The notes under the pieces: generated by a model
Told to the model about the DNA's origin: nothing
Seen by the model: the letters and a program-made list of their open reading frames with translations, nothing else
Databases searched by the model: none
NCBI GenBank assembly: GCA_008632985.1
Contig: QPGO01000197.1
Location: 62,001-126,000 of the forward strand
DNA from: Psammoneis japonica
Taxonomy: Eukaryota
Direction: 5' to 3'
DNA: 64,000 nucleotides
Made by a program: the position numbers and the translations under genes
Part shown: in pieces, positions 18,528-64,000 of the stretch
Layout of the letters: each line of letters starts with the position of its first letter
Numbering within the stretch: the first letter of the stretch is position 1

Positions 18528-20718
18528 GGGAGTTGCATGAAATGTCAAAATTTTCGTTTTTCCCTGCAAAAACGCACAGAAATGTCAGAGAGACCTGCCT
18601 GCCTGCATGCGAGTGCCACGGTCTGCACGATGCTGCGAAAGTTTGTGCACTTTCCACTCAAACGATGCTCGCACTTTTTGCCAGGGGACATGCCACAGAC
18701 ACACAACATTCGAGGCATTTGGCTGCAGGACAAATCCTGTGTGTTTGGGACTCTGGTTGATTTGACAAAATGTCGAAATTCCATGAAAGGCTTCTCAACA
18801 ATTGTCTTTTTTCCAACCAGTGCCGAGAGAAAATGCCCCCAGAAATGCAGGTGGTTGTGTCTTCACCAGACCCCTGCCAAAATTTCTCGTTGAGAAGACA
18901 ACCCAATGGAGTGAGAATGTTAAAATGATGTTGCACAGTGTGTGAAAAACAACTCACTCAATTAGGTTGGCATGGTGCATCATCACAAGCACTGAATGAA
19001 CGACAACACGGTGCGACAATCGATGCTGACGTCACCTTCTGTCGGTGCCCGCCTGTCAGCTCATTTCCTGCTGCACTCACATTTGCGTGTCTACACACAC
19101 ATCATCGGAGTTGCTGTGAGAGCACATGCATGATGTTGTCACGGCGTTTCTGCACGCATGAGTGTGCTGTGTGGCAGGTGCGACTGCAAGAGAGACGCCG
19201 TTGAGTTCCCTTCTCGATCCCGAGCTCCGATTTGAGCCAGTCACGACTGTCTCAACCTCATCGCTTTTCGTGCGACAGCACAGATTTCAAATTCAAATCC
19301 CGCCAAATGGCTCCAACCGCCAAAACCAGAAAAGGCCTCTTGGGGGGGATTGAGGGCTAGACCATTTTGGGTTGTTGTCGTTCAAGATTCCCTTGCACGC
19401 CGTTCCAAAAGCGTTCCAGAAGCGTTCCAACACCGTTCCGAGAACGTTCTCATGTGCACCAATTCACGTGGAAATCAAACTTTGGAGCCGGTCAATTTGC
19501 CAATGAGACATGTGATGCATTGCAACCAGTGCACTGTTGTTAGAACCATTTGAGCATGGCACAACAGTGCAAAAGTTTAACAGATTAGATGGATTCATTG
19601 CAAAAAGGTGCACCCGTCAAAACAGGTTTCTATTTTCTCCAAGGAAAAGAACGGCTGTTGGAAGTCTCAACAATTTTGAGTTGCAGTGGCTGTGAGTTAA
19701 ACTGCCATGATGTGTTGCAACTGCTGGTGTTGTTTGACACTAAATCACATCTGTGACAACCGCCAATGGCTCCAACATGGAAATGCCATTCGATGAAACA
19801 GGCATTTCGTCGTTCCCGTGTTTCCACCGTTCCGGGACCACACCAAAAGCGTTCCCAAAGGGAATCTCTCTAAAAGGCCCAACATCACAGCATTGTTTTT
19901 AGACATTGGAAACGAATGAGAACCCTGCCTGACAATGCATGGAACCATCAATCCACCTGCGGCAACAAAAACACTGCTGCATGGCACTGTGGCGCGGCAG
20001 CAATCATTTTAGCACAACAATGTAAAACATCAAATGCGCAACACACGACTGCACTGCTCACCACACAAATGCGCCTGCCCAGAGCCACAGCAGATTGTCT
20101 TGCAAGGACAGTCATTCAGAGGCCGACAAGATCGGAATGGATTTGGAACCAATGGGTTCGCGTCACACTTGAGCACTTTGCAGGACATGCAGCAGTGTGC
20201 GAGTTGTGGGGCCTTCTTCAAGATGAAGGCAACCTTTCTCATGGGTTCCTGCCCACTCACTTGTTGTGTGCCCTTGTTTTCTGAATCTGCATTGTTCTGA
20301 AACCATTTTGCCGGGAATCTGTGGTGGAGCACACGAAGACACGATAAGAAAATGGTTTTGTGTCGGAACAGAGTCAATTGTAAATCTGGACTTGTTGCAT
20401 TCCATCATTCCAATCTCTTTTTGAAAATCAATGTGCTGGCATTAGCTTCACCATCTTGTCATCTTAGACTGACTGGCAACCCAGGTTTGTGGATGACAAT
20501 GGCATGCACGGTGACGGTGGACGGCACTGACTTTCGCTTTGCACAACAAACCATCGCCGCCTTCGCCGTTCGCTCTTCACTCGACCCCATCCATCCGGTG
20601 TCTGGTGTTTGCATGGCCCTGAATGCAAAGCTTTGGGGGATGTGTAAAATGAATTGTCATCACGAAAAACCACGAAAAACAGGGAAAAACGAAAATGTCA
20701 ACATTTCATGCAACTCCC
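18528..20718. mobile_element. Degenerate non-autonomous TIR (DNA) transposon, ~2.2 kb
   Basis: Left end GGGAGTTGCATGAAATGTCAAAATTTTCGTTTTTCCCT is a near-perfect inverted repeat of AGGGAAAAACGAAAATGTCAACATTTCATGCAACTCCC (20681-20718); no clear TSD. Confidence 0.65.
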
Positions 20719-22334
20719 CGCATTTCATGGATCGTGGATCCAGATGCAAGCTTCAACTCGACAGAAAAGGTTGACCGTCATCAAGCCGTTTCAGCGAACC
20801 AAGACTGAAAAACATGGTTCGCAAAGTGTGCTGGGCCAGTGTCGACTAAAGAGAGGATTGTGGTGCAACTTCGAAACAAACATGTGAAAAAAGACTTTTG
20901 CCCAATGACCATCTCCAGAGACCCAAGGTCAGGGGTGGGCTCTGTTCAAGAACACACATGCAACTTGCAGCTCACAAGAACAAAACTGCGCTCTCCCCAC
21001 AGCACTCGCAATCATGTTTTTTTGTGCAGAGCAGAGGGCAACATCCTGGTGTTTTGTGGCATGCTTGTCATGTGCGAGTCCATTGATCACATGCAAACCT
21101 CACATTGATGTGCACTTTTGTTGTTGCAAAATGTGATGCCAGCTTGCTCGTGTCTTTTTTCTCTTTTCTGCTCTTTGTGGGTGGCAGGTGTGGTGTCCTC
21201 TTGGCGTCGCTTCTCTCGTGTTTCTTCTTGGCTCTCCCACAGCCATTTGCCCACAAGGCTTCTTCATCACTCTCATTTCCTGCAACATTTTTGCATGCAC
21301 AAATGTGCCATGTGTGGAGCACCAAAGTGCCACCACACAGTTTTCTGAGTTTGTTTGGACACCCGCGGCTCTGCCCCCCACCCCCCCCCCCCCCTCCTGA
21401 GCGGCTGGAGTGCTGCAGACCTTGCTTGATTGACCTGCTTTGTGGCTGATGTTGGCCTGCTGAGATGTCAGGCTGGGCTGCTTGCCAAGCACTGTTGGGG
21501 TCAACAAATCTGTGAAAACTCTCCTGCGTCGCGCCACATGCTGCTGGGTTGCCTTTTTCGCCTCTGCCGCATTTGCCCTCATGTTGTCTGGCAGGCTGCT
21601 TTGAACTTTGTGGAATGGCCCAACATTTGCCAGTGCATGTTGGCTGGCAAGATTGTGCCTCAGAACGTCCAAAATCATGTGGAGATGCTCAACATGAGAC
21701 ACAATCACTGGAGCTGTTTGTGCCGGCCACTGGGCAAGCAATGCTGGGCAATTTGCCATCTTGTTGGAGCTTGGCATTTTGTGCCTTGTCTCTCACATCC
21801 CTTGAATCCAGACACACAAACCCCAGATGATGTCAATGATGATGCTCAGCATCAGCCAAGAAGGGCACAATGCTGAACAATGCAGCAAGCCTGGTGCAGC
21901 CGGCATCCCCACCATGGCCGCCGATGATGCCACTTTCCTGCATCTGCAGGCTGTCCGCAGTGATGCTGATCCCACAGAAGCATGCGCTGGAAAAAGCAAC
22001 TCCCAGTGTGAGACCTGCAACAGGCTGTGGAAGTCTCCATGTGACTGAGACTGGTGTGACTCTGGCCATCGCGCAAGTGACTCACCTTGCTGCATGAAGG
22101 GTCTGCACAGGATGCACGCAGTGCCGAGTGTGACTGATTCCGCGAAAGGACTCAAACTCTGCATGTCTCACTGTTGCACATGTGCACACTCTGTGCAAAA
22201 TAATCTCATGATTTTCACAACACTGAAGTCTCTGCATTGCAAGCACTTGTTCCCTGTTTCTGCATGGGTCACAGCAACATTGCTCCCGGCAAGTGCAAGA
22301 ATGGTTTGCTTGGACAACAATGAAGGTCAGACAA

Positions 22335-23462
22335 ATGGCATTTAGTGCATTCATGACACTGGCAGTCATTCCGCTGATTGCCTTTCAACATCCAGTTAAG
22401 AGGGTTCTGAAAGAGAGCCAACATCAGATGCACAAACTGCGCACAAATCCGAATGACCCGGACAGCCCCACTTGTGAACTTGCGGTTGCGTGCTTCTTGG
22501 CAGAGTCACCTGAAGAATGGCTCCTTTTCTTAAAGGACTTTGACTGCATTTGCATTGGACAAAATGTTGTGACAGGACACGGTAAATTTTTGCTTGTGAG
22601 AAGGCCATTGCAGAGGGTGAAGCCCTTGCAGCCTTTGACAATGCTGCAGCAAACAAGAGTGCAGAAACAGCAGCATCACTGGCACGTTGCATTGCTGCCG
22701 TTGCCAAAAGTGTCTTCCCAGAAAGGGGTGCATTGACACAAAAGCACTGTTCAAGGCATTTTGTGCAAAACCCGCGAACATCAAAATGCGTGATTGTGTT
22801 GCTCGTGCCGTGGAAATGAGTGCGCATGTTCCAAAATTTCCACCTGTGCAAGATGGTGGACCAGTGCCGCAAGCACTGTCAAAAGACAATTTGGTTGATT
22901 TGTTTGAATGTGGCATTCCACGGCCATGGCAGAGCACCAGATGAAGTTGCAAGGATTCAATCCCTTGGCACACACCATTCCAGAAATTGTCTCTCATTCT
23001 GTGAGCGTGTTGAAGAAGTTGAATCTGCTGACAAGCTCATGGCCTCCACCTCACCTGAAGAGACAACCCTGAAGATGACTGGCAGACAATCCAATTCAGT
23101 GTGAAAAACCAAGTCATGGAGTCACACGCCAAGAGAAAGTTGACATCGGCGGCAAAGAAGTGAGCTTCAATGCGACGTCAGATGCAATGCGTGAGAGGAA
23201 GTGCGTGCTCCATGGTTTGGGTGATCACAGTGCTGAAGGCTGCTGGGAATTGAAACATCAAGTCAAGTGACTTAAAGTGATGTCAGCTCAGAAAACGACT
23301 GATGCATGCAATGGAGAGGAGCTCAATGCCAATGGACAAGCCATTGGAAGCACATTGAAGTGCATGGCACGTGATGATGTGAAGGCAAACAGAGAACTTT
23401 GTGCCTTCAAAAATGCGCGCCCCTCTGAAGATTCAGATGCTGACACCAATGACTGGAAGTGA
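22335..23462 (+). pseudogene. gag: Degenerate retrotransposon gag-like ORF
   Basis: KLRTNPNDPDSPTCELAV..SPEEWLLFLKDF..GQNV, KPANIKMRD..EM..FPP, DLFECGIPRPWQ, CVLHGLGDHSAEGC knuckle; frameshifts and stops. Confidence 0.65.
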
Positions 23463-24020
23463 ACCGCATCTGACAAAAAATGGCCAATGTGGTGCGACAG
23501 AGTGACCTGGCTAGACTCCAGAGTGACGATGTCTCAACGCTCAAGTGCAGCAGGTGCACGCACCCATGTTCTGGAGGCCTCAAGTGGCAAAATGTCCACT
23601 GAAATGGCGACAATGACAATGACTCCCTTGATGCATGAGAAGGTGGTGTTGGACACAACAAAAAATGTCCCTCAGCAGCAGCAGGACCCTTCTTTCACTC
23701 GCAAGACCTTGTCACAGGGGCGCGTGCAGCAGGCACCCCTGCTGTGGCCCCCAATGATGCCACTTTCCTGCATCTGCAGGCTGTCCACAGCAACACTGAT
23801 CCTGCAGAACAGAAGCGCATGTTGGAAAACTTGACTCCCAGTGCAAGACCTGTGACAGGCTGTGGGAGAGTGTCCGCATGACTGAGACTGGCACGACTGG
23901 CCATCACACAAGTGACTCACCTTGCATGAAGGGTCTGTGTGGGATGTGCACAGTGCCAAGCATGACTGGTTCTGTGAAAGGACTCAAACTCTGCATGTCT
24001 TGCTGTTGCACATGTGCATG

Positions 24021-24558
24021 CCACTGAGACACAAAATTTGCAAGCTGCAAATTAAAATTTGTTGAGACAAACAGCTTGCATTTTTTCATGTTGAAAGCAC
24101 ATGCGAGGTCTCAGAGCACTTCGTTTTTTGCTTCAAATGAGCAAATGCCTCTGTTTTGACAACCGCAGGTCTGCAAGTGATGTGAAACAATGCACCAATT
24201 GGATTGTCGTCATTGTGAAGAGCTGCGCAATGTTTTGTTTGTGAGGAAAGGCGGTGCACTTGTCCAAAAAGGTCATTTTTGTTGAAATTTTGTGATGCGC
24301 TGGCATGAGTTGCAGACACGAGAAGGCAGCTTCCTTTGAAAACAATGATTTCTCATCCTTTCTTGTGTGTCATGTCTTTTCTCAATCAAAGTGGAAAGAA
24401 CACCTGCACCTTGAACAATGCCAGAGGATGTTGCCTGCATTGCAAAGACAATCTTTGATGGTGGCAAGGGTCATTTCTTGACTTGTTGCGTGGCAATTGT
24501 GCGGGGATTTGGAACTTGTCACAAATTTTGCAATGTTGCAAATTTTTCGATTTGGCAG
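24021..24558. mobile_element. MITE inserted in the 3' LTR of the gag-only element
   Basis: Absent from the 5' LTR; flanked by CATG/CATG (empty site CACA, compatible with ancestral TATA); imperfect TIRs containing AAAATTTGCAA / TTGCAAATTTT. Confidence 0.65.
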
Positions 24559-25115
24559 CATGCTCTGCACAAAATGATCTCATGATTTTCACAACACCAA
24601 AATCTCTGCGTCGCGTGCTTGTTCCCCATTTCTGCACGGGTCACTGGTGGCCACCCGGCCATCTCTAAAAGCCTGACCAAGAATCTTTGTGGTGATTTTC
24701 AAGCTGGAGCATTGAGCCTGGATCTTGAAATTGGGTGGCTGAACTTTTGGGCCATCTGCAATGCAAACACATTCCAGACACACTGCAGGCAGGAATCCAT
24801 GTGACACTCTTGGGCCCCAAGAACTCTGCATGCAAGCTCAGCAATCAAGCTGGCACATGGCTGTGATGAACGCGCCAATGGTCACCAACAGAAAAAAGCA
24901 GCAGTTTTGCAGGTGCAGAAACTTGTCCACTCATCCATGCTCAAAGCACTTTTGTTTGCCTGGGTGACAATTCTGCAGATTGGTGCAAGCAGAAATGGGT
25001 GCACGTGCAACATGTGATGCATTGTCAAAAAATGTTCATGTTGCACATGTTGGCAGCACTGCAAGCTCCAACCTGGAGCTGGAGAGCACATCTGTGGCAA
25101 CACTGAGGCAGCATG

Positions 25116-25567
25116 TGCAGCGTGCATGCAGACAAAAGGTCATTTTTTTTGTCACGCCCTTTGTGACATTTAAAGGCTGCAACACGTCGCCATGATGCAT
25201 TGACTCTTGTCAGCAGCTGCACATTGCACTCCTCCCCACATGTGTCACGCGTCCATGCGGCTCTTTGCCAATGTGTGCTGACACTGCATGGTTTTGGCGG
25301 AACAGTGTGGGCACGCACGAAGGAACACACAGAACTGCACAGAGTTTTGCGTGTTCGACAGTGATCAACGTTGCTGCAGACAACTCCCACTCAGGGTTTC
25401 GAACCCCTGGACTCCTGCCCAATGGTCGCGATGAACCACTCCGCTGTGAATTCACAACGCAGCATGCATGCAGACAAAAGGTCATTTTTGTCATGCCCTT
25501 TGTGACATTTAAAGGCTGCAACACGTCACCGTGACACATCAACTCTTGTTGGTGGCTGCACATTGCA
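25116..25567 (-). mobile_element. TRIM-like miniature LTR element, copy 1 (LTRs 25116-25228 and 25458-25567) with internal tRNA-like A/B-box
   Basis: ~110-bp direct terminal repeats; TSD CATG (25112-15 / 25568-71); PPT GGGGAGGAG on minus strand next to the LTR; second copy at 63196-63642. Confidence 0.8.
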
Positions 25568-27896
25568 CATGATCTTGGAAGAGCAGAGAAACAGGGGTGT
25601 TGGCGCCATTGCTGTCAGAGAACCAGCTGGAGTTTTTTGCCACAAGAGATGAGATGGAAGCAACAAAAATTCTTCATTCTGCCGTTGGAGGCATGAGGGC
25701 CAATGCTGGGAGCTGCAAGCCAAACGCTCAGCTCCTGGGGGGTTGGCTTGCTTGTTTTTGTTGGGGGCAAGAATTTTGCACAAAAAGAGTGGTCAAAGGA
25801 GGACAGAACCTGCCACCACCATTGGCTTCAGAAGAGATGAGTGTGCGCTGGGCTGCTTTTGTTGTGACACAGTGCAGCCTGCCACAAGGTGGAGAGATGA
25901 TGCTCCCACAACAACAAGGTGACCTCACTCCTTTTGCACAGAGTTTGCACTGCATCTGTGGGCTTGTCAGGCTGGGGATCATGTGCCACTGTCCAACAAA
26001 AGAGGAGAGAGACAGAGCAATCTCCAATTGTCCTTTTGACATTTGTGGAATGTTGCAATGTGGAGCCAGAAGTCTGCTCTTTGAGGAAGACAGAGAGAGA
26101 GGCATCAATGCACTGAGATCACATGCAAACTGCCCAAGAACCACATCTGGCATGATGTGCCTGTCTCAAAGCTCATTGCTCATGCACAATGAATGCACTG
26201 CTGCATGGTGCCTGCCCTTCTTGCAGCCCCACACCATGCTGCACCACAAAACACAATGGGGGTCTTGTGGTGCACCAGGAGCATGTGTCATGCTCAACTC
26301 TGTTTGCTGGGGGGTGTCACAAACCCATGCATTAAAAATGAAGTCACTGCTGGACATTGCAGCTGTGCTTCTTTTTGGCAGTTTGCCAGGTTTGACCACT
26401 GCTGGATGCCAACCTGTTGTGCATGTGGCACCTGTTGGCCCCAAGGCAAACAACCCAAATTTTCTTGTCCTTGCTCAGATCATGGAGGGGGTGCACTTCA
26501 CTTTTCTTCAAAGCCCACCACAAGAAGGATTTGCAACCTGCAGCAGCAACCATCTGGCTGCGCACCAGACCTTGATGTTGACTCAACATGGAGGTGCATC
26601 ATCACATGATTTGTGAGAACATGTCCAGCAGCGCACACCAGACAAGCTCCATCTCTGGCTGCTGGGCTGTGAAGTGAGAGTTTTTGGGTCATGCACTGCA
26701 TGTCATGCACACACATTTCATTGTGCAAGTGCCGTGCTCCCCATTTTGCAAAGTGCCAAAGGGTTTTTGTTGCAACCATTTTTGTGAAAACAAAAGCTTG
26801 CAAGTCATTTTCTTTGATGTCTGAAGAGTGCACACTTGGGCAAGCCAGAGCTGATGCACTCAAAGAATGAAAGAGGAGAAACTGAAAACAGTGCAATGGC
26901 AAAATTGTCTCTTTTTCAGTTGGCAACAATTGACACATGCATTGCCCAGCAAATTTGCTGCAGAGCTTGCATGCACAGAGTTCTTCTGGTGTGTTCAAAT
27001 GATGTTGCACAGAGTCCTGCCTGGGGCGGGAACACACCGCCAGATTTGCTCACAGAACACAAGGCCATCAAATTGCCTTTCTGGCAATGTTTGTGACAGT
27101 GAATGGAGAGCATCATGCTTTGCAGGATCTTGCACTGGTGCTGTGTCCATTTGTGTCCCCCACAAAAGTCATCAGGCAAGAAATTGTCCAAAAGTCATCC
27201 AAAAAGTTGAAGGAAAGAAACAGATGGAAAGAAAAGTGGTGGGGGTGCTGCCTGCGGCAATCAGGGTCCTCTGTTTGACTCAATCGCGGGGCGCCAAACC
27301 CACCACTGACAGAATTTGAACAAGATTTTAGTTTGTCACACACAATTGTGTGTGCTCTCAATTCCGCATGCATGACACACGACGCAGCTTGCTTTCGAGC
27401 CACTCGGCTCACAAGAAGAATGACAACATCACAGCAGCGCTGACATCACGACACACATCTTTTAGCTCCTGTGATGGCATCCACATGGACACTCATCTGC
27501 TGTTTGGACAGCAGCAAGGAGCCATTGTTTTCTTCCACCTGCTCCATCTTCAACATTTCTGCCCTTCTCCGACAGCAGCCATCGACCGTCTCTGTGCTGC
27601 AACAATGTGAGCGCAGCCACTGCTTGCTGTGATGGGGCACAACAATCTGCCGCAAGGCAGAAAGTTGGCATTGCCACAACAAGGTAAACTCGTTTCCCTT
27701 TGTGCAGTTTGCACTGCAGTTCTAAGCTGTTCAGCAGCGGGGATTGTACCATGTCGCGGTCCAAACAAATGCGGGGAATGTGGAATCGGAAGTCTGTTCT
27801 TTGAGGGAATTACAAAGTGACGTCAATGCATGCGCGCGTCCGGCGCCCGTCTCCAAACTCGTCACTCACGACGACACGCACACAACAAAATCCACC

Positions 27897-29098
27897 ATGA
27901 TGCTGTCAGCGTCGTCATCCACAACAAGCCATGCTATTGTTCGTGGCGTGGTGACGAGAATAATCTCTTCTCGTTGTGTTGCTATTCGTTGTTTCTCCAC
28001 CACAAACAACAAAGATGAATTCATTCCACGCCGCCGTTCCAATCCACAATACCGTCCTCTCGCCAAGCCCCCCACCGTTCAAAAGGACGTGTTTGAATTG
28101 CAAGACAGTGACAATGATTTGCTGACGTTTGGAAGTGACGCAGCCGACGCTCTCCGTCATTCTCGTGCCTTGCGAAAAAAGGAGGGAGTCGAATCTCATT
28201 TTTTGCGCATGGCCGATTACATGACGGCACGACCGGGCACGACGGAACACTACGTGAGTGAACGCAGAGCACTCGCCATGGATTTGTGGGAACATGAGGA
28301 TCGAAGTGACGTGTTGCGAAAAATGGATGAATTGGTAGAAACGGAACGAATCAAGCAGATGGAATTGGGAGACGATGACATGGAACCCATTAACAAGAGA
28401 GATCTGTCTGAAGAGAGTGAGGAGGAGCCCAATCAACTGGTGCACGGTGATTGGTGAGTGCGCTAGTTTTTAGTTTTTTTTTTGTTGACAATTCAACTAT
28501 ATGAAGAGTCCATATGGGAGCTGGAGTGTCTTTATGACGACTTATGAAAACGTATAATGTCTTACTCACTCTTTCTCCTCTCTCAAAAACCTTCATGCTC
28601 ACCTTCAGGGCCGAATCTATCATTCAGGTGGACCGCGTTCAAAAAGTCCAAAGAGGCGGCACCATGGTACGGTACCGTGCCCTTTTATTGGGTGGCAATG
28701 GCCAAGGCGTGGCGGGTTTTGGAATTGCCAAGGCCAATTCACCAGCCGAAGCCACGACGGCCGCGTCGCGCATTTGCAAACGCAATATATACTTTTGCGA
28801 TCGCGTACTAAACAAGGGATTGACACGTGATTTGGTGGGCAAACACAATTCGTGCAAAGTCTTTCTGAGAGCAACCTCACCGAATTATGGATTGAAGGGA
28901 CACGACTTGGTCAAGGAGATTTTGATTCTCATGGGAATTACCGATTGTTCGTGCAAGACACACGGAAATCGGAACCCGTACAATGTGGTTCGTGCCACCT
29001 TTAAGGCCATTGCGACGCATGAAAGCATGGAGGAGATTGCTCTCAAGCGAGGCAAGAGGCTCTTGAGTTTGGAACGAGTCAAACGATTGCAAATCTAA
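27897..29098 (+). CDS. MRPS5: Mitochondrial ribosomal protein uS5m (S5); join(27897..28453,28609..29098)
   Basis: Ser/Thr/Arg-rich presequence; S5 motifs IIQVDRVQKVQRGG..YRALLLGGNGQGVAGFGIAKA and GNRNPYNVVRATFKA; GT-AG intron restores W-AES. Confidence 0.9.
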
Positions 29099-53600: not shown

Positions 53601-54194
53601 AACCGGTGCATCCATGACAATGGTGGAGAATTCATTGGAGAGGACTTTCAATTGTCATTGCAACGAGCAGGAGTGGAAGACGCTCCGACTGCGTCGCGAA
53701 ATCCACAAGCCAATGCGGCATGCGAGCGCATGCATCAAACTGTTGGAAGTGTCTTGCGCACTTTGCTTCATGTTTGTCCTCCACAGAATGTTGAGCAGGC
53801 CAATCAACTGGTGGACAATGCATTGGCAACCGCCATGCATGCAATGCGATGTGCGGTTTCTCGTGCTCTCAAGATTTCACCCGGTGCTGTGGTTTTTCAA
53901 CGTGATGTGATTCTCGACTTGCCGGTCCCAGCCGATCTTGCCGCCATTCAAGAACACCGACAAGCGATCATCAATGCGAATCTCCGTCGAGCCAACGCTA
54001 AACGCCGATCCCACGATTTTCAAGTTGGCGGACAAGTTCTGCTCAAGGCCATCGACCCAACCAAGCTCGAGCCACGAGCTCACGGTCCACATCCTGTCGT
54101 TCAAGTGCATGCTGACGGTGCGCTTGCGGTCCAACGTGCACCTCATGTGACAGAACGATTGAACACACGTCGCGTCGTACCGTGTCACACCTGA
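50700..54194 (+). pseudogene. pol: Gypsy pol (protease, RT, RNase H, integrase) with in-frame TGA stops and pervasive Tyr->Cys/His changes
   Basis: LLDSGG, YIDD, ADSSD..GAVIVQDGKPVACWSRKL, H..H..C..C, VDLIGP, DNGGEF, ERMH; TGA at 51813, 52614 and 53223 where CGA fits. Confidence 0.93.
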
Positions 54195-54434
54195 GGTCAA
54201 GGGTTTTCTCCCCAACATTTGGGTTTCCCTTCTATCCTCATCCATTGGAATTTAAATTTTTTGAGTCCCGCATGATTCTCGACACTCGAGTCATGGAAGG
54301 GAAGAGTGCAGTGTCTCGCACCTTATTTTTCTGACACACAGCATTAATGAACCTGTTAGATATAACGGAAGCCGTTGTAACGGGCTTCGCTGAAAGCGAC
54401 CCTCGTTACCTCGGTCTTTCGCTCACAATTTTGT

Positions 54435-54458
54435 NNNNNNNNNNNNNNNNNNNNNNNN
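54435..54458. other. Assembly gap (24 N)
   Basis: Run of n. Confidence 1.
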
Positions 54459-57346: not shown

Positions 57347-57670
57347 TCTGTTTCCACTCTTCTTGATTCTTGATGCAATGCTAGATGCTTAGCTACTGTA
57401 GCTATCGAAACTGAAAACTTCTGTGCGCCGCAAGCCGCAAGGCAGACAACGCCTGCAATGAGGCACAGAATCAAGACCAACACACACCCGAGACACTGAC
57501 AAGACAATCCCCGTGGACTGACGTCCGTCCCCCAGCCGTCCCGACGCCCGTCGCAGTTTTGAAGTTCGAAAGTTGTGCACATCGAACAAAAACCATCCCA
57601 TGGTTATGGTGTCACTGCCAACAGACAGCACCAACCTTGTTGCTTTTCAAGCTACAGCCGTCGTGTTGCT

Positions 57671-59320
57671 GTGAGGATTTCAACTGTTTGTGCTGTTGCA
57701 AGTCTTGTTGTTGCCTTGAGCGCTGCTGTTGTTGAAGGAACCTTTTGTCCTGCAACAATGCAGAGAACTTCAGTTTTGCAGGTCACTGGCAACAGCTTGA
57801 GGACAATGGTGTTGTCAGGTTGGACTGGCCATGCAGCAGAGTGCACTTCAACACAAACATGACTGCAGAAGAGATGGCATCCTTGCCCTCCGAGCAAAAA
57901 TTCATCGGGTGCAGCTCAGTGCAGTCGTCGCCAACACAGTCACCAGCAAACTGGAGCAAACAACAATTCTGAAAGGAAATTTGTTTCAGCCAGAGAAGGA
58001 CAAACATGGCACTCAAATTGAAGGCACCAGGGTGCACACCGCGGCATTGGCGGACGTGCTCCAGCCCCAGGTGGGACTCCGTGTGACATTGGGCCCGTAG
58101 AATTCTACGTGCGAGCTCCGCAGTGCAAGAATTTAATTGATGGATGTGTTTGTTTTCAACATCAAATAGACGGCCAAGTTTGTGGCACAATTGTGCCTCT
58201 CACCACTCGACGTTTTTGCAAATGCGCCTGCCCTGCGCGATTCTCAAGACGTCACAGAATCGCGCTGTGACAAAAAATGTCAAAAGTTTTTGGACGGATC
58301 GCTCAATGACTGCACCGTAAAATGACACAAAATGTCGAAAAAATCACGCAGAAATCTGTGTGCGCGACATGCGACGTGATTAAAAAAACTGTCGACGTCA
58401 CAGCTCAGCAGTGCGAGGTCCCACCCAGACCTGGAACGCGTCGGCGCTGACAAAATTGCTGACACAAAAGCGGTGCACCCTGTGGCAACGGTTTGGGCAA
58501 GTCAGCCATGCCGGTGCTTTAATTCCACGGAGTGGAAATGGATGACGCTGTTGCAACTCTTTCAACTCCACCAACACTGCCAGCATGCTGGGCTGGTTTT
58601 GTTGGTGCCAGTGATGTGGCAGGCTTTTGTGTGGATGGCACTCCGCAAACATGCAGCCATCTTGCTCAACCCTGGAAATGCAACAATTGCAACTCTGCAT
58701 GTCCTGGCATCTTGGGAAAACGTTTGAATGCTGAGGTGAGCGTCCAAGCCATTTCAGGCATTGGACTGACGCAGAGTGCGTTTGCAAATTTGCCAGTGGC
58801 GCTTGGCAAAAAAACAATGCAGGGTCATTGCAACCGAACCCTTCAGACCAAGACACTGCCTTTTTGGAACTTTGAGGAGTGGCAACCACACCTTGTGATT
58901 GTCTCTCTTGGTGGAAATGATTGCAACCACCAAGAGGGGGCACCTTCCAATGAGACTTTTGTTCAATCACATCAAGAGTTTCTTGTGCAGATTGCCACAA
59001 GCCATTTACAAACGATGAATTTTCAACAATTGCGAGCACATGTGGGCAAGGGGACCCGGCGGAACTGAGCCAAGATCCAAACAACAATCATTGTCAACCT
59101 TGTCCACATGCACAAGATGTTGTCAAATCCTTTCAGATTGCGCATGGTGCAACCATTCTGACCGAACACATTTTTGTTCCATGCAACGGCCCGGTTGTGA
59201 TGGGAGTTGGTGACATTGGTTGTGACAGCCACAAGAACCGGCTTGGTCAAGAGCGGGTGGCTGACTTTTTAGAACCAAAGCTTTGTGAAATCATGGACTG
59301 GCCAAACAGCAAATGCGTTT
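57671..59320 (+). pseudogene. Hypermutated duplicate of the SGNH esterase gene, interrupted by MITE copy 2
   Basis: Colinear with 54777-56007; start ACTATGAGG->GCTGTGAGG; WKYNN->WKCNN, AYPG->ACPG, DYYN->GHCN, NDYN->NDCN. Confidence 0.93.
58053..58442 (-). mobile_element. 390-bp MITE, copy 2 (inverted, TpA-mutated)
   Basis: Reverse-complement match to 49346-49735, same length; TSD GGCG (58049-52 / 58443-46). Confidence 0.92.
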
Positions 59321-59620
59321 GACAGAGCCGATGGTTGCACCAACAAATGGAGTTGTTGACACAAGAACCAGCTTGGTCAAGAGCGGGTGGCTGACTTTTT
59401 AGAACCAAAGCTTTGTGAAATCATGGACTGGCCCAACAGCTGACATGCGTTCGACAGAGATGATGGCTGCACCAATGAATGGAGTTGTTGACACAAGAAC
59501 CAGCTTGGCCAAGAAAGGGTGGCTGACTTTTTAGAACCAAAGCTTTGTGAAATCATGGACTGGCCTGACAGCTGATGCGTTCGACAGAGCCGATGGTTGC
59601 ACCAACAAATGGAGTTGTTG
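59231..59620 (+). repeat. Tandem triplication (~130-132 bp unit) of the esterase pseudogene 3' end
   Basis: ACAAGAACC..TTTTTAGAACCAAAGCTTTGTGAAATCATGGACTGGCC units starting at 59231, 59361 and 59493. Confidence 0.9.
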
Positions 59621-62201
59621 TGATGACTGCCAGACAACTGCGGACATTGTTGTCTGCTCATGTGGTGCCATGTGCAACATTGCAACTTTGTCAGAAGTTA
59701 ACTTGCTGTAGAAAGTGACTTTGGTTTTAGTTTCCTCTTGCATTGGTGAGCTTTTGGATGATGAGAACTTGCCTCTCTCTCTGCTGCACCAGGCAATCTT
59801 AAGACCAGGTGCTGTTGCCACACGTGCATCTCTTGAGGAGAGAGAAAGAGATTGTTCTAAGTCAGAGTGATTGTGGCTGATGCGTGCAAAGCTGCCATGT
59901 GTTTGGAAGTTGTGGTGTCTCTCATGAATCAGGCTGGAGGTGTTGGCATCCTTTTGCACTGCCAGGAATCCCACTGCACCAGTCTCATTTTCAAGCAAGA
60001 ATCTTCCACACCAGTGCTCATGTCCCAAGTTTCTCAGATGCGGAAGATTGGAGACCAACAGGAAATGAAGTGGTCTGTGCTTCCCCCTGCATGAGTGTGT
60101 GTGTGTGTGGTGGTGTGTGTGTGGGGGGGGGGGGGGTGCTGTGCGTTGCTGCTTCTGAGGTGCTTTGTGCATTGCAGAAGCAGCACTCATGGCTGCGAGC
60201 ACCTGACAAGCCACGGCAACCTCACTCTTTTCTTTCACCAATGTTGCACTGCATGTTTGACGAGTTGAGAGTGAGTTTTTGCTTGCAGCCCACACCACCC
60301 ACCCATTGTGGCTCTCTGGCAAGAGCTCCAGTTCTGGGTTCCTTGAGTTGCAAGCTCTGGCTTGAGGTCTGGTGCCAGTGGCTTGCACCACAACCAACCA
60401 GAGTGCTCAAAATCAGGATCATCAGCCAACAGTGAAGAGCAGAGTCAGAGAATGACAGAGGTCAATTGACCAGCAATTGCTGAAGAATCAGCTGGTTGGC
60501 CATTGAGCAAGTCAAAATGACAAGGAATTCAAAGACTCAGGTTGCACCTGGCACTGGCAAAGCTGGTGCTGGAAGCAAAACAAGAGCAGTGGTGCTGGGT
60601 GCTTGCTGAGGAAGCAGCACATGCTCCAGCCACACACGAGCTTTTGTTGTGATCTCAGGACAGCCAGCAATGCTGAGCTGGGAGGATTGCCTCAGTGAAT
60701 GGTTGTGATTTCCAAGTGCATGTGCTCATGATTGGTGTGCCACACAAACAGCACCCAGTTGCTTGTGCACTCTGTGGGAGCATCTTTGCTGCAGTTGTGC
60801 CTGCTGTGCAATCTTTGCAAGTTTTTCACATTTTTGATCTTTTCAACTCTGCTGAAATTTTTTGCCAACAGACAGCACACCACCGACCAGGGAGGTTTCC
60901 ACAGAGAGAACGTTTGATGTGCGGCTGCTGCAGCGCACCTTGGATCCTGTTGCATCATGGCATTTGTTGATTCCGCTGCTGGCGCGGCCGTGCTTGCTGG
61001 GGCAAGAGCTGGTGGTGGTGGTGGTGGTGGGGTGGAGGTTGAGAGTTCAAATCTGAGGCTCTGTCAAAAAAGCAATTGTGGCTTGTGAGGCAAAAGAAGA
61101 GCTGCCGCCGAGTGCTTCGCCAGCCTGGAGCCACTGTTGCTCTGTGTTTTGCACTGGTCACTGGCTGCCATCAAATGGCCAATGGAGTTGTGTGGTTCTG
61201 TTGCATTGGGGCCGGGAGACACAGAAATGGATTGCAGTTGAGTCACATGAAGAGCTGCGGGGGCGGTGAAAAAAGACAGAGCTGGAGCATGGGATTCAGA
61301 TGGGATTGAACACAACCAGGCCTGCGGGGAGCATTGACCACTTGTCTTTCTTTGTGGGTGTGGGTGCATGTGTGCCGTTGCATGCTGCATTGCCTGTACG
61401 TGCACAGGGCCCTGCCGTCGGGGCCGGCATTGTGGTGGCTGAGTGGCGTGGCCACCGCACCGGTGACGCGGATGACCGTCACATTTGATGTCTCATGCCA
61501 TTTTTGGGGCTGCAGCGAGGTGCACGGACACTCTTTTTTTTCCAATTTATCGCCACAACAGCACATCGCACAAACTCACTTGTTGTTTGATGTGTTTTCC
61601 CCAGTCTGACTTTTTCATGTAGAATTCACGACAAATTGTCTTTGTGTGCAACTGAACACATTTTTGAACATGCCACGCCGGCAATCCCAATTTTTCAGAA
61701 CTTTTGAGCTCTCCTGAAAAACCGTGCCATGCACCAGTCGCAGGGAATTTGCCGATTTTTTAGGATGTCCCCACAACCTCTCATGTCCTCAATGACAATT
61801 CCAAGAATCCGAAGAATTCATCTGCACTGAACAACCCATGCCCTTTCAAAATCCAAGGGACACACTTTCAAATTCAGACGGACAAACCGACTGCCCCACT
61901 GCCCCACTGCCCCACTGCCGGACCGACACGAAAAAGTCTGCAATCACCAACCACTGAGTGGTCAATGATTTGTTCTTCTGCTCACGCATGTCATGCTTCG
62001 AGCAGTCATGCAATCTGTCCGTCGGTCTGTGCGTGAAGCCAAAAAATGACAAAAGAAAACAAACAATGAAAGAAGGCTCTGCGTGCGTTGCAGGTTGCAG
62101 CAGTGAAGCATCCAGCATTGCTGCGATCGCTGCATGCTGCGTCTCTTCATCCTCCCCACCTTGCCATCATCTTGAGTGCCACTTTTGACAACAAGCCTTC
62201 C

Positions 62202-62984
62202 ATGACTTCCTTTGACCAACTCGACAAGGGTGTTCAGCGTGGGCTGCAAGTCCTTGCAACACAGCATCGGCATGCTGTCGTTCAAGCAGTTCTCAAGAAA
62301 GAAGATGACTTTGGCAGGACAGAAAGTCATGAACTGTACAAAGGCTGTGCGCAAATCATGAAGGAAGAGAATTTGTCCCCTGCTGCATTTCTGGCTCGCT
62401 CTTTTGACATGAAGGTGCTGACGGGTCACGCTGAGTGGCTGGAAGCACCCTGTGACAAAAACAACGACACCGTGACCGACTTGTGCACATGCTTGGAACA
62501 AGCGTGGCTCAACCGAGAATTTCCGAACAAATCAATTCCGATGTGTGACAATGCCAATCATGAGGAAATTGAAGGGAGGAAGAAGAAGCTCGAGCGCGAG
62601 GCCCGTGAGAATTCGTCGTTCGAGAAGAATGATCCAACAGAAATGACCAAGCCACACTGCCGGTTCTTCATCTGCCTTGCACATGAAGAAAAGGACAACA
62701 ACCAACCTCCTGAAAACTTCTATGAAATGGCAGAAGAGGCGGCTCAAGCTTTCTGGGAATTGATGTTTGGAACCTGTGGGCATGCCAATTGCCACTTGGA
62801 TTGCCCCGGTTGGCTTGCAAACAAATTCTTCATCTCTGCTGAAGTTGAACTTGAAAACATGGAAACCACTGGTGTTCCGGAAACTGCAGAACTGATTGAT
62901 CAAGAAATCTCAATGAAAGGGGTGTTCAGATTGGATGCGGGTGATGTTGGAAAGAGTTACGTTGAAATCACTCGTGTGGAATGA
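62202..62984 (+). pseudogene. Protein-like open frame inside a TpA-depleted block (hypothetical protein or mutated relic)
   Basis: 260 codons with natural composition (E/K-rich coiled stretch), few Tyr. Confidence 0.45.
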
Positions 62985-63195
62985 ACGCCTGGTGTGGCAC
63001 ATGGCTCTTGCATTGAGGTTCACAGTGCCACTTGATTGCCAGGGGACAGCTCGGGGAACACATTCCACATCTTGTGAATGGTCGTGCGGTGGCAGAGACA
63101 CGTTCACATCACCGTGACAAATGTTGCTTTGCATTCTAATGACCAACGACAAAGGCTGCAACACAACTCAAACCATTGTGCAGAACTGCAGCCAT

Positions 63196-63642
63196 TGCAG
63201 TGTGCATGCAGACAAAAGGTTGTTTTTGTCATGCCCTTTGTGACATTTAAAGGCTGCAACACGTCGCTGTGATGCATTGGCTCTTGTTGGCAGCTGTGTG
63301 TTGCACTCCTCCCCATGTGTCACGCGTCCATGCGGCTCTTTACTGACATGTGCTGACACTGCACGGTTTTGGCAGAACAGTGTGGGTGCGTGCGAAGGAA
63401 CATGCAGAACTGCACAGAGTTTTTACGCGTTCGACAGTGATCAACGTTGCTGCAGACAACTCCCACTCAGGGTTTCGAACCCCTGGCCTCCTGCCTGATG
63501 GTTGCGATGAACTGCTGCATTGTGAACTCACAATGCAGTGTGCATGCAGACAAAGGTCATTTTTGTCATGCCCTTTGTGACATTTAAAGGCTGTAACACG
63601 TCGCCGTGACACATTAGCTCTTGTCAGCAGCTGCACACTGCA
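63196..63642 (-). mobile_element. TRIM-like miniature LTR element, copy 2
   Basis: Same structure as 25116-25567; ends TGCAGTGT..ACACTGCA; flanks CCAT/CTGT. Confidence 0.8.
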
Positions 63643-64000
63643 CTGTCCCATTGTTGCCGTTGCATCTCTCTAGACTGCAAATTTCAGTTTGTCGTGTTCG
63701 CAAGCAGCTGCAGTGTTGCACTCATCTTGCAAACTTTCCTTCCTTCTGATTGTTCCGTCCTTCTCTTGCTTGAGATGGTCCCTGCCACGCATGCCGGCAG
63801 AAGTCAGTCACCCGATCTGGGGGGGAAGCATTTTGGTTTTAGGCGGGCGGGCTCATCGCGCCCTTGCCCAGTCATGATGTCACGATCACGATCACGTCCA
63901 TCCATCTGTCTCATCAACGCAGACGGGAAATTGACCGTGCTTCCACCAAATGGCAAACTGCCAACTGCTGCTCTAGATCAGAGAGGGTCATCACCAGAGT

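Follow-up and report, generated by a model that had tools for sequence, protein, structure and literature searches.

The closest described system is in the unrelated alga Bigelowiella natans, in which mutation-accumulation lines acquired de novo mutations with a TpA signature (bioRxiv 10.64898/2026.01.13.699255). In that preprint, two integrated viral regions acquired 231 de novo mutations, of which 230 were A>G or T>C, all of them at TpA; 124 clusters were depleted in TpA and enriched in CpA and TpG, and an ADAT2 homologue was proposed as the enzyme. Here we describe four islands with the same signature in a 64,000-nucleotide stretch of DNA (the window). The process is of the same kind, and a genuine, targeted mutator of TpA like that of B. 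natans very probably underlies the islands. The window is not from B. natans and probably derives from a diatom; among the named relatives of its proteins, a single relative of one protein is from a diatom. The initial annotation of the window knew of no description in diatoms. Our literature search for the signature in diatoms likewise found no report, but the 2026 preprint does describe it and is so far the only one to do so. The signature is the opposite of that left by RIP and by 5-methylcytosine decay, as had been proposed.

Four islands are depleted of TpA

TA density is 3.5-8.3 per kb in the four islands and 41.5 per kb in the intervening genes (Table 1). In 1-kb bins the observed/expected ratio (o/e) of TA is 0.00-0.18 at 19001-27000, 31001-39000, 50001-54000 and 58001-64000 and 0.41-0.75 in bins lying entirely outside the islands, with edge-straddling bins intermediate. 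The o/e of TG and CA climbs to about 1.5-2.2 in the islands. Per kb, the islands have changed by -33 to -38 for TA, -3 to -30 for CG and +30 to +76 for TG+CA, and the gains of TG+CA offset the losses of TA+CG. With expected counts computed from the 41.5 TA per kb of the normal parts, the TA deficit has a Poisson P <= 1e-41 for every island. This bears out the earlier description of four blocks almost without TA and rich in TG and CA.

A two-state HMM run on TA/(TA+TG+CA) segmented the window into depleted segments at 18248-28459, 30155-39658, 49836-54220 and 57412-63995, together with two segments of 300 bp, both probably ordinary. The four-island layout of the initial annotation stands, but the limits of island 3 do not: its true start is near 48913, an unmutated MITE of 393 bp (about 49347-49741) breaks it, and its end is near 54357, about 50 nt into the 3' LTR. 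Similarly, the islands are distinct but not every edge is as sharp as had been claimed, because TA-poor shoulders extend into the 5' parts of the S5 and GPR1/FUN34 genes. The distance from an edge to the start codon of the flanking gene is about 0-250 bp, and an edge can cut a duplicated unit.

Island 1 is flanked by the start of an FG-GAP gene (minus strand, ATG 18292) and by the S5 gene, and its right shoulder spans S5 exon 1. Summed read depth is elevated at 27001-27667 within this island. The start codons of the GPR1/FUN34 gene (30494, minus strand) and of the Sina-RING gene (39691) flank island 2. The data support the earlier view that depletion is limited to islands of DNA that is mobile or duplicated. 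The term mobile DNA is established for only part of islands 1, 2 and 4, because most of their length has no recognisable protein domain; Pfam finds none in the ORFs of island 1.

Table 1. Features of the window, with positions counted from its first nucleotide
Feature	Position	Strand	Remarks
TpA-depleted island 1	18248..28459; core about 18530-27700		35 TA vs 380 expected (18530-27700); CpG also depleted
TpA-depleted island 2	30155..39658; core about 30660-39550		31 TA vs 369 expected
High-copy repeat family copy	34300..36340		Inside island 2
Sina-RING pseudogene copy and downstream flank	37001..38094	+	Hypermutated; Sina_RING Pfam match, shifted frame
Functional Sina-RING gene	39691..40494	+	Normal TA content
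5' LTR of Ty3/gypsy element	48689..48862	+	Normal TA content; start set by LTR match
TpA-depleted island 3	48913..54357	+	38 TA vs 191 expected; gypsy internal region and first ~50 nt of 3' LTR; CpG nearly intact
MITE with terminal inverted repeats	49347..49741	+	In gag region; unmutated, 28 TA
3' LTR start	54307..54434	+	Ended by 24-N assembly gap at 54435-54458
TpA-depleted island 4	57412..64000		35 TA vs 265 expected (57600-64000); continues past window end
GDSL-lipase pseudogene copy and flanks	57572..59823	+	Hypermutated, MITE-split; functional copy at 54680-56236
Hypermutated copy of same MITE family as 49347..49741	58050..58445	-	Inside island 4
Former CDS, uncharacterised protein family	62070..62984	+	Inside island 4

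The depleted sequence is present in the reads

Modified bases in heterochromatin could be miscalled so that TA is read as TG or CA. Base modification is a known cause of miscalls on long-read platforms, and the support from run X1 is not fully independent, since this run, whose platform is not recorded, may be the assembly's own sample. However, a run X1 contig of 3526 nt corresponds to 31280-34805 with 2 differences, and another of 6842 nt, which crosses the right edge of island 2, corresponds to 36137-42977, also with 2. The X1-only contigs carry the TpA-depleted sequence at an even depth of about 57-67, the same as that of the flanking genes, which makes an assembly artefact unlikely. Among the in-island differences listed between the assembly and X1, three of four are CpG transitions. 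TA is readable in the repeat family at 34.9-36.1 kb, because other copies carry it in the same data; the unmutated MITE with its 28 TA stands inside island 3, and the pseudogene copies also bear frameshifts, gaps and a MITE insertion. We regard miscalling as highly improbable.

Direction and sequence context of the substitutions

Three independent tests (paralogues within the window, outgroup proteins and other genomic copies of a repeat) show that TA has changed to TG or CA, that is, by A:T to G:C transitions on either strand. The initial annotation had read this direction from four homologous pairs, and it holds for seven pairs plus one LTR pair. Opposite the 135 TA of the normal copies, the island copies have CA (54), TG (50), TA (16) or other dinucleotides (15). 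Conversion has thus affected 104/135, compared with 4/492 in reverse (normal TG/CA, island TA; Fisher p = 1e-84).

The A>G change is specific to TpA, in agreement with the earlier claim of A-to-G hypermutation at TpA: per A-site it is 104/250 (0.416) at TpA, 31/460 (0.067) at ApA, 36/489 (0.074) at CpA and 28/382 (0.073) at GpA. Where the two strands differ, T-A-Y is converted over T-A-R by 44 to 17 (p = 7e-4), so that R-T-A-Y is the context most prone to conversion and Y-T-A-R the least. Surviving TA is over-represented at TTAA (5.4x), CTAA/TTAG (3.65x) and CTAG (2.2x) and under-represented at ATAT (0.10x) and ATAC/GTAT (0.09x). There is no preference for G at the +2 position (25 vs 21). Conversions on the two strands are interleaved. 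Where adjacent double differences occur between island copies, 51/104 are CA vs TG, from which it follows that conversion events are independent in each copy.

These context data bear on a second proposal of the initial annotation, error-prone repair by a Pol-eta-like polymerase in methylated repeats. On this reading such repair, or translesion synthesis, would be drawn to DNA that is methylated or heterochromatic and would insert the wrong base opposite T at TA. Pol eta is known for A>G changes at WA motifs, methylation is probable in the islands with CpG decay, and the CpG transitions among the X1 differences would fit. A WA preference predicts conversion of ApA, however, and the proposal is not supported because ApA is not elevated, its rate being at background. 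Furthermore, about 85-90% of sites are converted with almost no other substitutions (0/86 in the LTR pair), which would be hard to obtain from patch synthesis, and island 3 has lost TA while retaining CpG. This polymerase is therefore an improbable source of the islands.

A Ty3/gypsy element was mutated after integration

The coding content of island 3, identified by Pfam, is gag, protease, RT, RNase H and integrase in a single frame, and Pol homologues reach 61% identity to the element. Tyr makes up 0.34% of its residues compared with 3.4% in 30 aligned homologues (range 2.56-4.7% among the 120 homologues listed). We defined consensus-Tyr columns as those with Tyr in >= 60% of the 30 Pol homologues. 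There are 27 such columns, and the residue found there in the window is Cys (17), His (6), Tyr (2) or Phe (2), so 23/27 are now Cys or His, and this outgroup comparison upholds TA as the ancestral state. There are three in-frame TGA codons at columns that are mostly Arg in the homologues, two of them clear and one weak.

TA density in the Pol-coding region is about 7.4 per kb (48.9 +/- 12.7 in 50 relatives). The region's TG content of 103.7 per kb is the top value compared with those relatives (71.2 +/- 11.9), and its CA content of 76.5 per kb is average (77.8 +/- 12.9). This suggests a sense-strand bias, such as would arise if the retroelement alone had been affected, through A-to-I editing of its RNA by an ADAR- or ADAT-like enzyme before reverse transcription, and had arrived edited. 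The TG-minus-CA excess, however, has a z of only 1.68, and 6 of the 23 Tyr changes are to His and so are antisense-strand events. The 3' LTR differs from the 5' LTR at five positions in all, within its first ~50 nt (TA to CA, 4; TA to TG, 1), which corresponds to conversion of 5/12 TA, 0/9 CG and 0/86 other sites. Because the two LTRs differ, with four of the five differences of antisense type, mutation must have come after integration and in place. The 5' LTR, whose 3' end at 48862 is a putative reading of the TG...CA terminus, is spared, the transcribed part included. RNA editing also fails to account for the MITE copy or for the hypermutated duplicates of genes, promoters included, and we consider it very unlikely.

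All 80 metagenomic relatives of the retroelement lack the signature (minimum TA o/e 0.39), a result that says little on the spread of the process because the search favours intact copies.

Duplicated genes and repeats differ in their fate

The Sina-RING pseudogene has 24/27 TA and 30/45 CG converted relative to the functional copy, and its longest ORF contains 0 Tyr and 0 TA. The edge of island 2 falls about 140 bp upstream of the functional Sina-RING ATG, inside the duplicated unit. A contig from run X2 covers 39662-40679 at the functional gene; judging by a spliced contig elsewhere in this run, X2 appears to be RNA. For the GDSL-lipase pseudogene and its flanks, 24/28 and 12/15 TA are converted; the CDS of the functional copy is at 55132-56007. 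In the MITE copy of island 4, conversion has reached 23/28 TA and 3/27 CG, and 10/276 other sites differ.

Summed depth over the high-copy repeat is 555-2512, compared with about 57 for single-copy DNA. Of its 26 best-supported differences, 14 are CA/TG in the window vs TA in other genomic copies and 4 are TG/CA vs CG elsewhere. The former CDS in island 4 has 26 homologues at E<=1e-3 (best 6.6e-18); Pfam gave no significant family for 10 of them, with two matches below the cut-offs. All six Tyr-rich columns of this family are now Cys (3) or His (3) in the window.

The initial annotation had called the process repeat-targeted. In the sense of RIP this does not hold: the functional Sina-RING and GDSL-lipase genes, one MITE and many repeat copies keep TA, and an island edge falls inside a duplicated unit. 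Targeting by homology, as in RIP, was rejected on the evidence of the functional paralogues and of the one MITE copy that escaped conversion.

TpA loss is fast and separate from CpG decay

TA conversion stands at 82% at a background divergence of 3.6%, when CpG conversion is 11%; CpG conversion is 60-80% at 6.5-11% background divergence. Background substitution is slower than the TpA process by at least about two orders of magnitude. Islands 1, 2 and 4 have 25-32 CpG per kb compared with 55.6 in the normal parts, and island 3 has 52.4. The decay of CpG to TpG/CpA is a second, slower process, independent of TpA loss and seen in the older islands. It appears to be ordinary 5-methylcytosine deamination.

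Proposed mechanism

The best explanation overall, which we hold to be somewhat better than even, is a local, DNA-level TpA mutator of silenced mobile and duplicated DNA that works by adenine deamination. TpA has been turned to TpG/CpA in the body of the LTR retroelement, a MITE copy, repeat-family copies and the pseudogenised duplicates of two host genes, in place and after insertion or duplication, and the genes between the islands were left untouched. The positions of the island edges suggest that targeting would track chromatin state, not sequence homology.

The chemistry may be enzymatic deamination of adenine to hypoxanthine, which reads as G. The chances that an adenine deaminase is the enzyme are close to evenly balanced. 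The leading candidate would be a TadA/ADAT2-like enzyme, whose natural substrate is likewise U-A-(C), and the T-A-Y preference is consistent with the TadA-type deaminase put forward initially. TadA recognises U33-A34-C35-G36, and some natural TadA have the Asn that permits ssDNA deamination, as given in PMC10586758. The islands match U-A-C-G in their T-A-Y preference, but not in G at +2. In substrates of eukaryotic ADAT2/3, A34 is mostly followed by a purine, at odds with T-A-Y.

Deamination of A in T-A-Y and change of T in R-T-A on the other strand are indistinguishable by sequence. Thymine could be the target if a TET/JBP-type dioxygenase oxidised T in R-T-A within silenced chromatin; the resulting 5-hydroxymethyl- or 5-formyluracil would pair with G, giving T-to-C and reading as TA to CA (TG on the other strand), and CpG decay could be increased by the action of this class of enzyme on 5mC. 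The TpA restriction, the two-strand conversions and the T-A-Y preference fit this equally well, and both decays can be written as a pyrimidine transition in a self-complementary Y-R step. 5-Formyluracil is mutagenic towards T-to-C and dinoflagellate 5hmU favours TpA, although a literature search for this TpA preference found no paper. A single enzyme for both decays is argued against because TpA and CpG losses are uncoupled in time and in island 3. The sole study with measured de novo events, that on B. natans, proposes adenine deamination and tests neither chemistry. Oxidation of thymine is unlikely, and adenine deamination is preferred.

The effect of the TpA process is permanent inactivation of the targeted DNA. 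TATA-type promoter elements are lost, as in the LTR change from GATATATAG to GACACACAG, all Tyr codons are lost to Cys or His, and TAA and TAG stops are erased. RIP, in contrast, creates stop codons, which the TpA process does not.

Composition of the islands

Counts in 1-kb windows give a TA observed/expected ratio (o/e) of 0.00-0.18 throughout 19001-27000, 31001-39000, 50001-54000 and 58001-64000, and of 0.41-0.75 in windows lying fully outside the four TpA-depleted islands; windows that straddle an edge are intermediate. The low windows follow one another in runs of four to nine at or below 0.18, which places them among clusters as defined for Bigelowiella natans. TG and CA o/e are raised to about 1.5-2.2 in the islands, and counts per 250 bp show the same. 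Most values for islands 1, 2 and 4 lie in this range for both dinucleotides. Island 3 has a TG o/e of 1.47-1.71 and a CA o/e of only 1.19-1.41, which makes it a cluster by its TpA but a marginal one by the CpA/TpG mean. With the density of the normal parts (41.5 TA per kb) as expectation, islands 1 to 4 contain 35, 31, 38 and 35 TA where 380, 369, 191 and 265 are expected (Poisson P <=1e-41 for every island). CpG is scarce as well in islands 1, 2 and 4, whereas island 3 shows no such depletion. Consistent with this, TA and CG together lose 60-68 per kb in islands 1, 2 and 4 as against a gain of 66-76 per kb in TG and CA, and in island 3 a gain of 30 per kb balances a TA loss of 33 per kb. GC content is 0.48-0.52 in the islands and 0.44-0.51 outside.

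A two-state HMM returned the depleted segments listed in the table. The blocks delimited in the initial annotation were placed correctly, and the HMM and the counts refine them in three respects: the start of island 3 lies near 48913 and is broken by a later insertion (a MITE), CpG is lost as well, and some edges have shoulders. The HMM also called two 300-bp TA-poor segments within ORFs, the first of which encodes a PT-repeat protein; these are probably compositional (low-complexity coding) and outside the phenomenon. Islands 1, 2 and 4 have about 20 more GpC per kb (78-80 vs 58) and less ApT and TpC; we attribute the GpC excess to by-products of TAC to TGC and GTA to GCA changes.

Two island edges have TA-poor shoulders within the 5' parts of neighbouring genes. 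The edge of island 1 is about 230 bp upstream of the ATG of the FG-GAP gene. The left edge of island 2 precedes the GPR1/FUN34 ATG by about 0-170 bp and has a shoulder that extends into the gene; its right edge precedes the Sina ATG by about 140 bp, and there a contig from a second, RNA-like sequencing run (X2) starts at 39662. One further edge falls within an LTR, the gypsy 3' LTR. The shoulder in the GPR1/FUN34/YaaH gene contains a stretch of eight His and another of Ser. In exon 1 of the gene for S5, an organellar-type ribosomal protein, TA is low (o/e 0.23) and CpG normal; the island 1 process may have spilled over into a weakly constrained presequence, or this may be mere composition. The S5 protein has its best match at 81% identity in a collection of 5.8 billion proteins, and no protein of the window has a closer match. 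Of 81 hits, the one that carries an organism name is from the diatom Leptocylindrus danicus, at 65% identity, which makes a diatom origin plausible, though thinly supported. The genes of the window are intron-poor, with for example an uninterrupted frame of 2393 codons. Since the B. natans proteome is public, these features indicate that the window does not come from that species.

Features of the window referred to in the text (window positions)
Feature	Position	Strand	Location	Remarks
Short TA-poor segments	9454-9753; 56479-56785		within ORFs	HMM
FG-GAP gene	11141-18292	-		intronless; 2383 codons; at least 11 FG-GAP repeats; start ~230 bp from island 1 edge
Depleted segment	18248-28459		island 1	HMM
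Long open frame	25573-26616			347 codons
High-copy family segments	27.0-27.7, 31.0-31.7, 34.3-36.3 kb			summed read depth 555-25525 vs ~57 single-copy
S5 gene	27744-29098	+		two exons; ORF 27744-28457 is the N-terminal part by homologue similarity
Depleted segment	30155-39658		island 2	HMM
GPR1/FUN34/YaaH gene	30155-30494	-	TA-poor shoulder of island 2	first ~110 codons
ORF	31160-32032			
Sina-RING gene copy			island 2	frameshifted copy of the adjoining functional gene
Duplicated unit	38831-40985			contains island 2 edge (~39550)
Gypsy LTR starts	48689; 54307			LTR match
Ty3/gypsy element body		+	island 3	protease, RT, RNase H and integrase in one frame (Pfam)
MITE copy, unmutated	~49347-49741	+	in gypsy gag	~393 bp; terminal inverted repeats; 28 TA
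Depleted segment	49836-54220		island 3	HMM
Retroelement	50700-54191	+		
Assembly gap	54435-54458			24 N; truncates gypsy 3' LTR after 128 nt
GDSL gene 3' end	55921-56049			
Depleted segment	57412-63995		island 4	HMM
GDSL-lipase gene copy			island 4	copy of the adjoining gene; split by MITE
MITE copy, hypermutated	58050-58445	-	island 4	interrupts GDSL pseudogene
Tandem units	59230-59620		GDSL pseudogene	three units of ~130 nt from the GDSL gene 3' end
Uncharacterised ORF	62070-62984		island 4	26 homologues, best E 6.6e-18

Contents of the islands

The initial annotation described the blocks as transposon relics and duplicated genes. Mobile identity was seen for the gypsy element (Pol homologues of up to 61% identity), the MITE and the high-copy repeat, and two pseudocopies of host genes are likewise mutated; the greater part of islands 1, 2 and 4 has no recognisable identity. 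Pfam scans covered three sets of 36, 99 and 11 ORFs. Matches above or near the cut-off within these three islands came from the two pseudogene copies alone. Because the rest of the islands has no Pfam match in the first 135 of these ORFs, the description as transposon relics is established for only part of these islands. The ORF at 31160-32032 has zero homologues at E<=1e-3. The homologues of the uncharacterised island 4 ORF contain no significant Pfam family, and a single-protein scan found no relative of its product among viral contigs. Rfam and tRNA scans of the window gave no match. The MITE terminal inverted repeats start GACGCGTTCCAG, and the hypermutated MITE copy retains TA in its final ~80 nt.

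Direction of the change

We aligned seven segment pairs, each with one copy in normal DNA (ordinary TA content, outside the islands) and one in an island, together with the LTR pair. Across these pairs the normal copies have 135 TA, which in the island copies read as CA at 54 positions, TG at 50, TA at 16 and other dinucleotides at 15. The reverse, TG or CA in the normal copy and TA in the island copy, was found at 4 of 492 positions (Fisher p = 1e-84). The near-equal numbers of CA and TG (54 vs 50) show that both strands are affected. Island copies aligned with each other have CA against TG in 51 of 104 adjacent double differences, with the next classes at 6 each, which indicates a single ancestral TA or CG resolved separately in each copy.

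Outgroup proteins give the same direction. In 27 alignment columns, 60% or more of the 30 Pol homologues have Tyr; there the window gypsy Pol has Cys 17 times, His 6 times, Tyr twice and Phe twice, while control columns are retained (Trp 15/15, Cys 16/20, His 13/17). Its Tyr content is 0.34%, as against 2.56-4.7% across the 120 homologues listed. The Tyr-rich columns of the uncharacterised island 4 ORF are Cys or His in six of six cases. A third line of evidence comes from the repeat copy at 34.9-36.1 kb: in 14 of the 26 best-supported differences the window has CA or TG and other genomic copies, read from contigs, have TA; a further 4 of the 26 are TG or CA in the window and CG elsewhere. The direction TA to TG or CA, as first proposed from the sequence, is therefore borne out by three independent lines: paralogues, outgroup proteins and genomic family copies.

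A sequencing or assembly artefact as the cause of the TA loss is very improbable. Contigs built only from a public sequencing run that matches the window (X1) agree with 31280-34805 (2 differences) and with 36137-42977 (2 differences and 1 gap), at a depth of 57-67 that equals the flanking genes, and the second of them spans the edge of island 2. Moreover, other repeat copies in the X1 data read as TA where the window copy has CA or TG, and an unmutated MITE with 28 TA lies inside island 3. X1 contains 89% of sampled words from 30001-40000. It is possibly the assembly's own sample, so its support is good and not fully independent.

Sequence specificity

With the normal copy as reference, the rate of A>G per A-site is 0.416 at TpA (104/250), 0.067 at ApA (31/460), 0.074 at CpA (36/489) and 0.073 at GpA (28/382). 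The TpA rate has a ceiling of 0.5 because one event destroys the site. Equal A>G rates in all NpA contexts, the pattern that would tell against a TpA-specific process, were thus looked for and not seen. The same figures bear on the error-prone Pol-eta-type synthesis (WA motif) suggested in the initial annotation as an alternative: WA targeting predicts that ApA is raised with TpA, whereas ApA stands at 0.067, and we disfavour this explanation.

The context extends beyond the dinucleotide. Where the two strands of a site differ in the 3' neighbour, the A before a pyrimidine was converted 44 times and the other A 17 times (p = 7e-4). The 145 TA that survive in the islands, compared with 1324 TA of normal DNA, are enriched at TTAA (5.4x), CTAA/TTAG (3.65x) and CTAG (2.2x) and scarce at ATAT (0.10x), ATAC/GTAT (0.09x) and GTAC (0.45x). 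This shows that R-T-A-Y is sensitive and Y-T-A-R resistant. There is no preference for G at +2, as in the UACG recognised by TadA, among the converted sites. Nor were strand-coordinated runs, the trace expected of a processive single-strand deaminase, demonstrated: neighbouring conversions share a strand in 52 of 96 cases vs 47.2 in shuffles (p = 0.18), and conversions on the two strands are interleaved.

The retroelement at 50700-54191 has 103.7 TG per kb vs 71.2 +/- 11.9 in 50 relatives, with average CA. TA thus seems to have been converted mainly to TG there, but the excess of TG over CA has z = 1.68, which does no more than suggest a sense-strand (transcription-linked) bias.

Timing and relation to CpG decay

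Over the 128 comparable nt of the gypsy LTR pair, 5 of 12 TA differ (4 to CA and 1 to TG), as against 0 of 9 CG and 0 of 86 other sites; all five conversions are within the first ~50 nt of the 3' LTR. LTRs are identical at insertion and these now differ by TA conversions, so the mutation took place in situ, after integration. The Pol-coding region of this element has 7.4 TA per kb vs 48.9 +/- 12.7 in 50 relatives, a loss of about 85%. As this loss is accompanied by no background change in the LTRs, the rate by our arithmetic exceeds background by some two orders of magnitude or more. RNA editing before integration can be excluded as the main cause: the LTRs of one insertion differ by five TA conversions, antisense-type changes are present with both strands affected, and DNA that was never reverse-transcribed is hypermutated too.

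The other pairs show that TA conversion saturates early and that CpG conversion trails. The MITE pair has 23 of 28 TA converted, with 3 of 27 CG and 3.6% of other sites changed. The corresponding values are 24/28 and 12/15 TA, 30/50 and 16/22 CG and 6.5-8.5% of other sites for the GDSL copies, and 24/27 TA, 30/45 CG and 11% of other sites for the Sina copy. Overall, 94 of 176 aligned CpG have gone from CG to TG or CA. C>T is 0.298 per site at CpG and 0.045-0.064 at CpA, CpC and CpT, as expected of 5mC deamination. The kinetics of TA and CpG are uncoupled, which indicates two processes, one fast and TpA-specific and the other ordinary slow CpG decay. Additionally, the MITE is unmutated in island 3 but mutated in island 4, suggesting that the TpA process is episodic.

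Pol has three in-frame TGA, of which two are at columns that are clearly Arg in the homologues and the third is at a column where Arg is tied for commonest; this fits an origin of these stops by CGA to TGA. Where the assembly and the X1 contigs disagree inside islands, 3 of the 4 differences among the matches listed are CpG transitions (31851, 31908 and 36900, all in island 2). These could be heterozygosity, or continuing 5mC decay between culture samples.

Targeting

The initial annotation proposed that repeats are targeted as such. Homology-based targeting, under which as in RIP every copy of a duplication is mutated and the tracts match the duplicated segment, does not agree with what is spared: the functional Sina and GDSL genes have normal TA and Tyr, one MITE copy is unmutated and many genomic copies of the repeat at 34.9-36.1 kb retain TA. 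Furthermore, the right edge of island 2 lies inside a duplicated unit whose upstream part is mutated and whose gene and downstream flank are spared. We infer that the island edges are chromatin-state boundaries at active promoters. An alternative is that purifying selection against clustered mutations sets the edges. X2 gave contigs on the flanking genes and nearly none on the islands, a lack of cover that we do not take as silencing; the run is considered RNA-like because it is spliced at 44235/44335.

Mechanism

The reading that fits best, judged from the substitution pattern, is adenine deamination. A TadA/ADAT-like enzyme would deaminate A to hypoxanthine at TA on either strand, with T-A-Y preferred. 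A DNA adenine deaminase had been one of the candidates from the outset, and the T-A-Y preference lends the idea support, as it would fit TadA-like deamination. According to PMC10586758, TadA recognises U33-A34-C35-G36, and some natural TadA have the Asn that permits deamination of ssDNA. The islands share with TadA/ADAT2 the U/T at -1 and the C at +1 (PMC10586758), but not a preference for G at +2. TadA/ADAT2 also act on single-stranded loops, whereas the window pattern is without strand-coordinated runs. The mirror reading is that the T in R-T-A is oxidised to a mispairing base; from sequence, this thymine route is indistinguishable from the adenine route. A Pfam search of the genes in the 64-kb window found no deaminase among them.

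Biased gene conversion or selection on composition was considered as the cause and rejected, since the change is TpA-specific and affects pseudogenes and dead elements.

Comparison with known systems

No description of the process in diatoms was known when the islands were first noticed. As to its being undescribed in general, this has been overtaken by a 2026 preprint on B. natans, from another supergroup lineage (Mettrop et al., bioRxiv 10.64898/2026.01.13.699255); a full-text literature search found no further report of TpA hypermutation and none for diatoms. The main text of the preprint describes mutation-accumulation lines with 231 mutations in two integrated viral regions, 230 of them A>G or T>C and all of these at TpA. 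The rate is given there as ~6e-7 per site per generation, ~1000-fold over background and in some lines only. It also reports 124 TpA-depleted, CpA+TpG-enriched clusters and an enrichment of TE domains in depleted CDS, and its authors propose adenine deamination with an ADAT2 homologue as the candidate enzyme. CpG, trinucleotide context and diatoms are not mentioned in that main text (bioRxiv 10.64898/2026.01.13.699255).

We have filed the phenomenon as a further case of this very recently described process. As in the B. natans main text, A:T-to-G:C transitions are restricted to TpA and give TpG or CpA by strand, discrete regions are affected (foreign or mobile DNA in B. natans, and identifiably so for part of the islands here) while the remaining genome (here, the genes between islands) is normal, and TpA-poor, CpA+TpG-rich clusters are the long-term footprint. 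Both appear episodic, in B. natans by its restriction to some lines and here by the unmutated MITE within a mutated element. The organism differs, however, and islands 1, 2 and 4 show CpG transitions and decay, of which the preprint's main text reports none. Depletion here is also near saturation (TA o/e 0.00-0.18), compared with 0.45 for the NCLDV region and a cluster cut-off of 0.43 in that text. What has been mutated here is an LTR retroelement, a MITE, copies of repeats and pseudogenised duplicates of host genes, unlike the viral insertions described in B. natans. Beyond the preprint's main text, the window adds saturation-level footprints, proof from an LTR pair of action after integration, the extended T-A-Y (R-T-A-Y) motif, kinetic independence from CpG decay, and edges that follow promoters and not the limits of repeats. 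Among metagenome relatives of the gypsy Pol, 0 of 80 loci had a TA o/e below 0.39.

The islands resemble ascomycete RIP in that dense transitions in sharply delimited tracts permanently disable mobile or duplicated DNA. RIP, as summarised in the main text of the preprint, changes C to T mainly at CpA, makes TpA and stops, lowers GC and mutates both copies (bioRxiv 10.64898/2026.01.13.699255). In the window, in contrast, TpA is lost, GC stays the same or rises slightly, the TA change makes no stops and one duplicate is spared; C>T at CpA is at the background level (0.045 per site). Deamination of 5mC explains the CpG signature of islands 1, 2 and 4 but cannot remove TpA, is slower than the TpA process and is near-absent in island 3. 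APOBEC3 and ADAR offer another likeness, as deaminase-type hypermutation against mobile elements in a dinucleotide context, and ADAR prefers U before the edited A according to the same main text (bioRxiv 10.64898/2026.01.13.699255). APOBEC3 and ADAR, however, have cDNA or RNA as their substrate, ahead of integration, and mark one strand, whereas the window was mutated after integration, on both strands and in DNA that was never reverse-transcribed.

If the window is from a diatom or other ochrophyte, the TpA mutator would be a wider eukaryotic genome defence and not the curiosity of one chlorarachniophyte. It would stand beside RIP and APOBEC editing as their equivalent directed at A:T, and might be an adenine editor of DNA that occurs in nature. 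Tentatively, and with the balance of probability somewhat against it, we suggest a shared, ancient, chromatin-guided and TpA-specific DNA editing defence in at least two SAR branches (stramenopile algae and Rhizaria), its enzyme being a T-A-Y adenine deaminase or an R-T-A thymine oxidase. Such a defence would permanently inactivate transposons, viral insertions and silenced duplicates by erasing TATA elements, every Tyr codon and TAA/TAG. It would act in bursts that far outpace 5mC decay and would stop ~100-250 bp from active promoters.

Consequences for the affected sequences

With TpA erased, the sequences lose their TATA-like elements, all Tyr codons and the stops TAA and TAG, and gain no new stops. 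An example from the gypsy 3' LTR is the change of GATATATAG to GACACACAG. With every Tyr replaced by Cys or His, and with ORFs kept long by the lack of TAA/TAG, annotation of TEs and genes by homology fails in the islands. Such islands also distort composition-based analyses. The 347-codon open frame listed in the table is a dead ORF that is still long.
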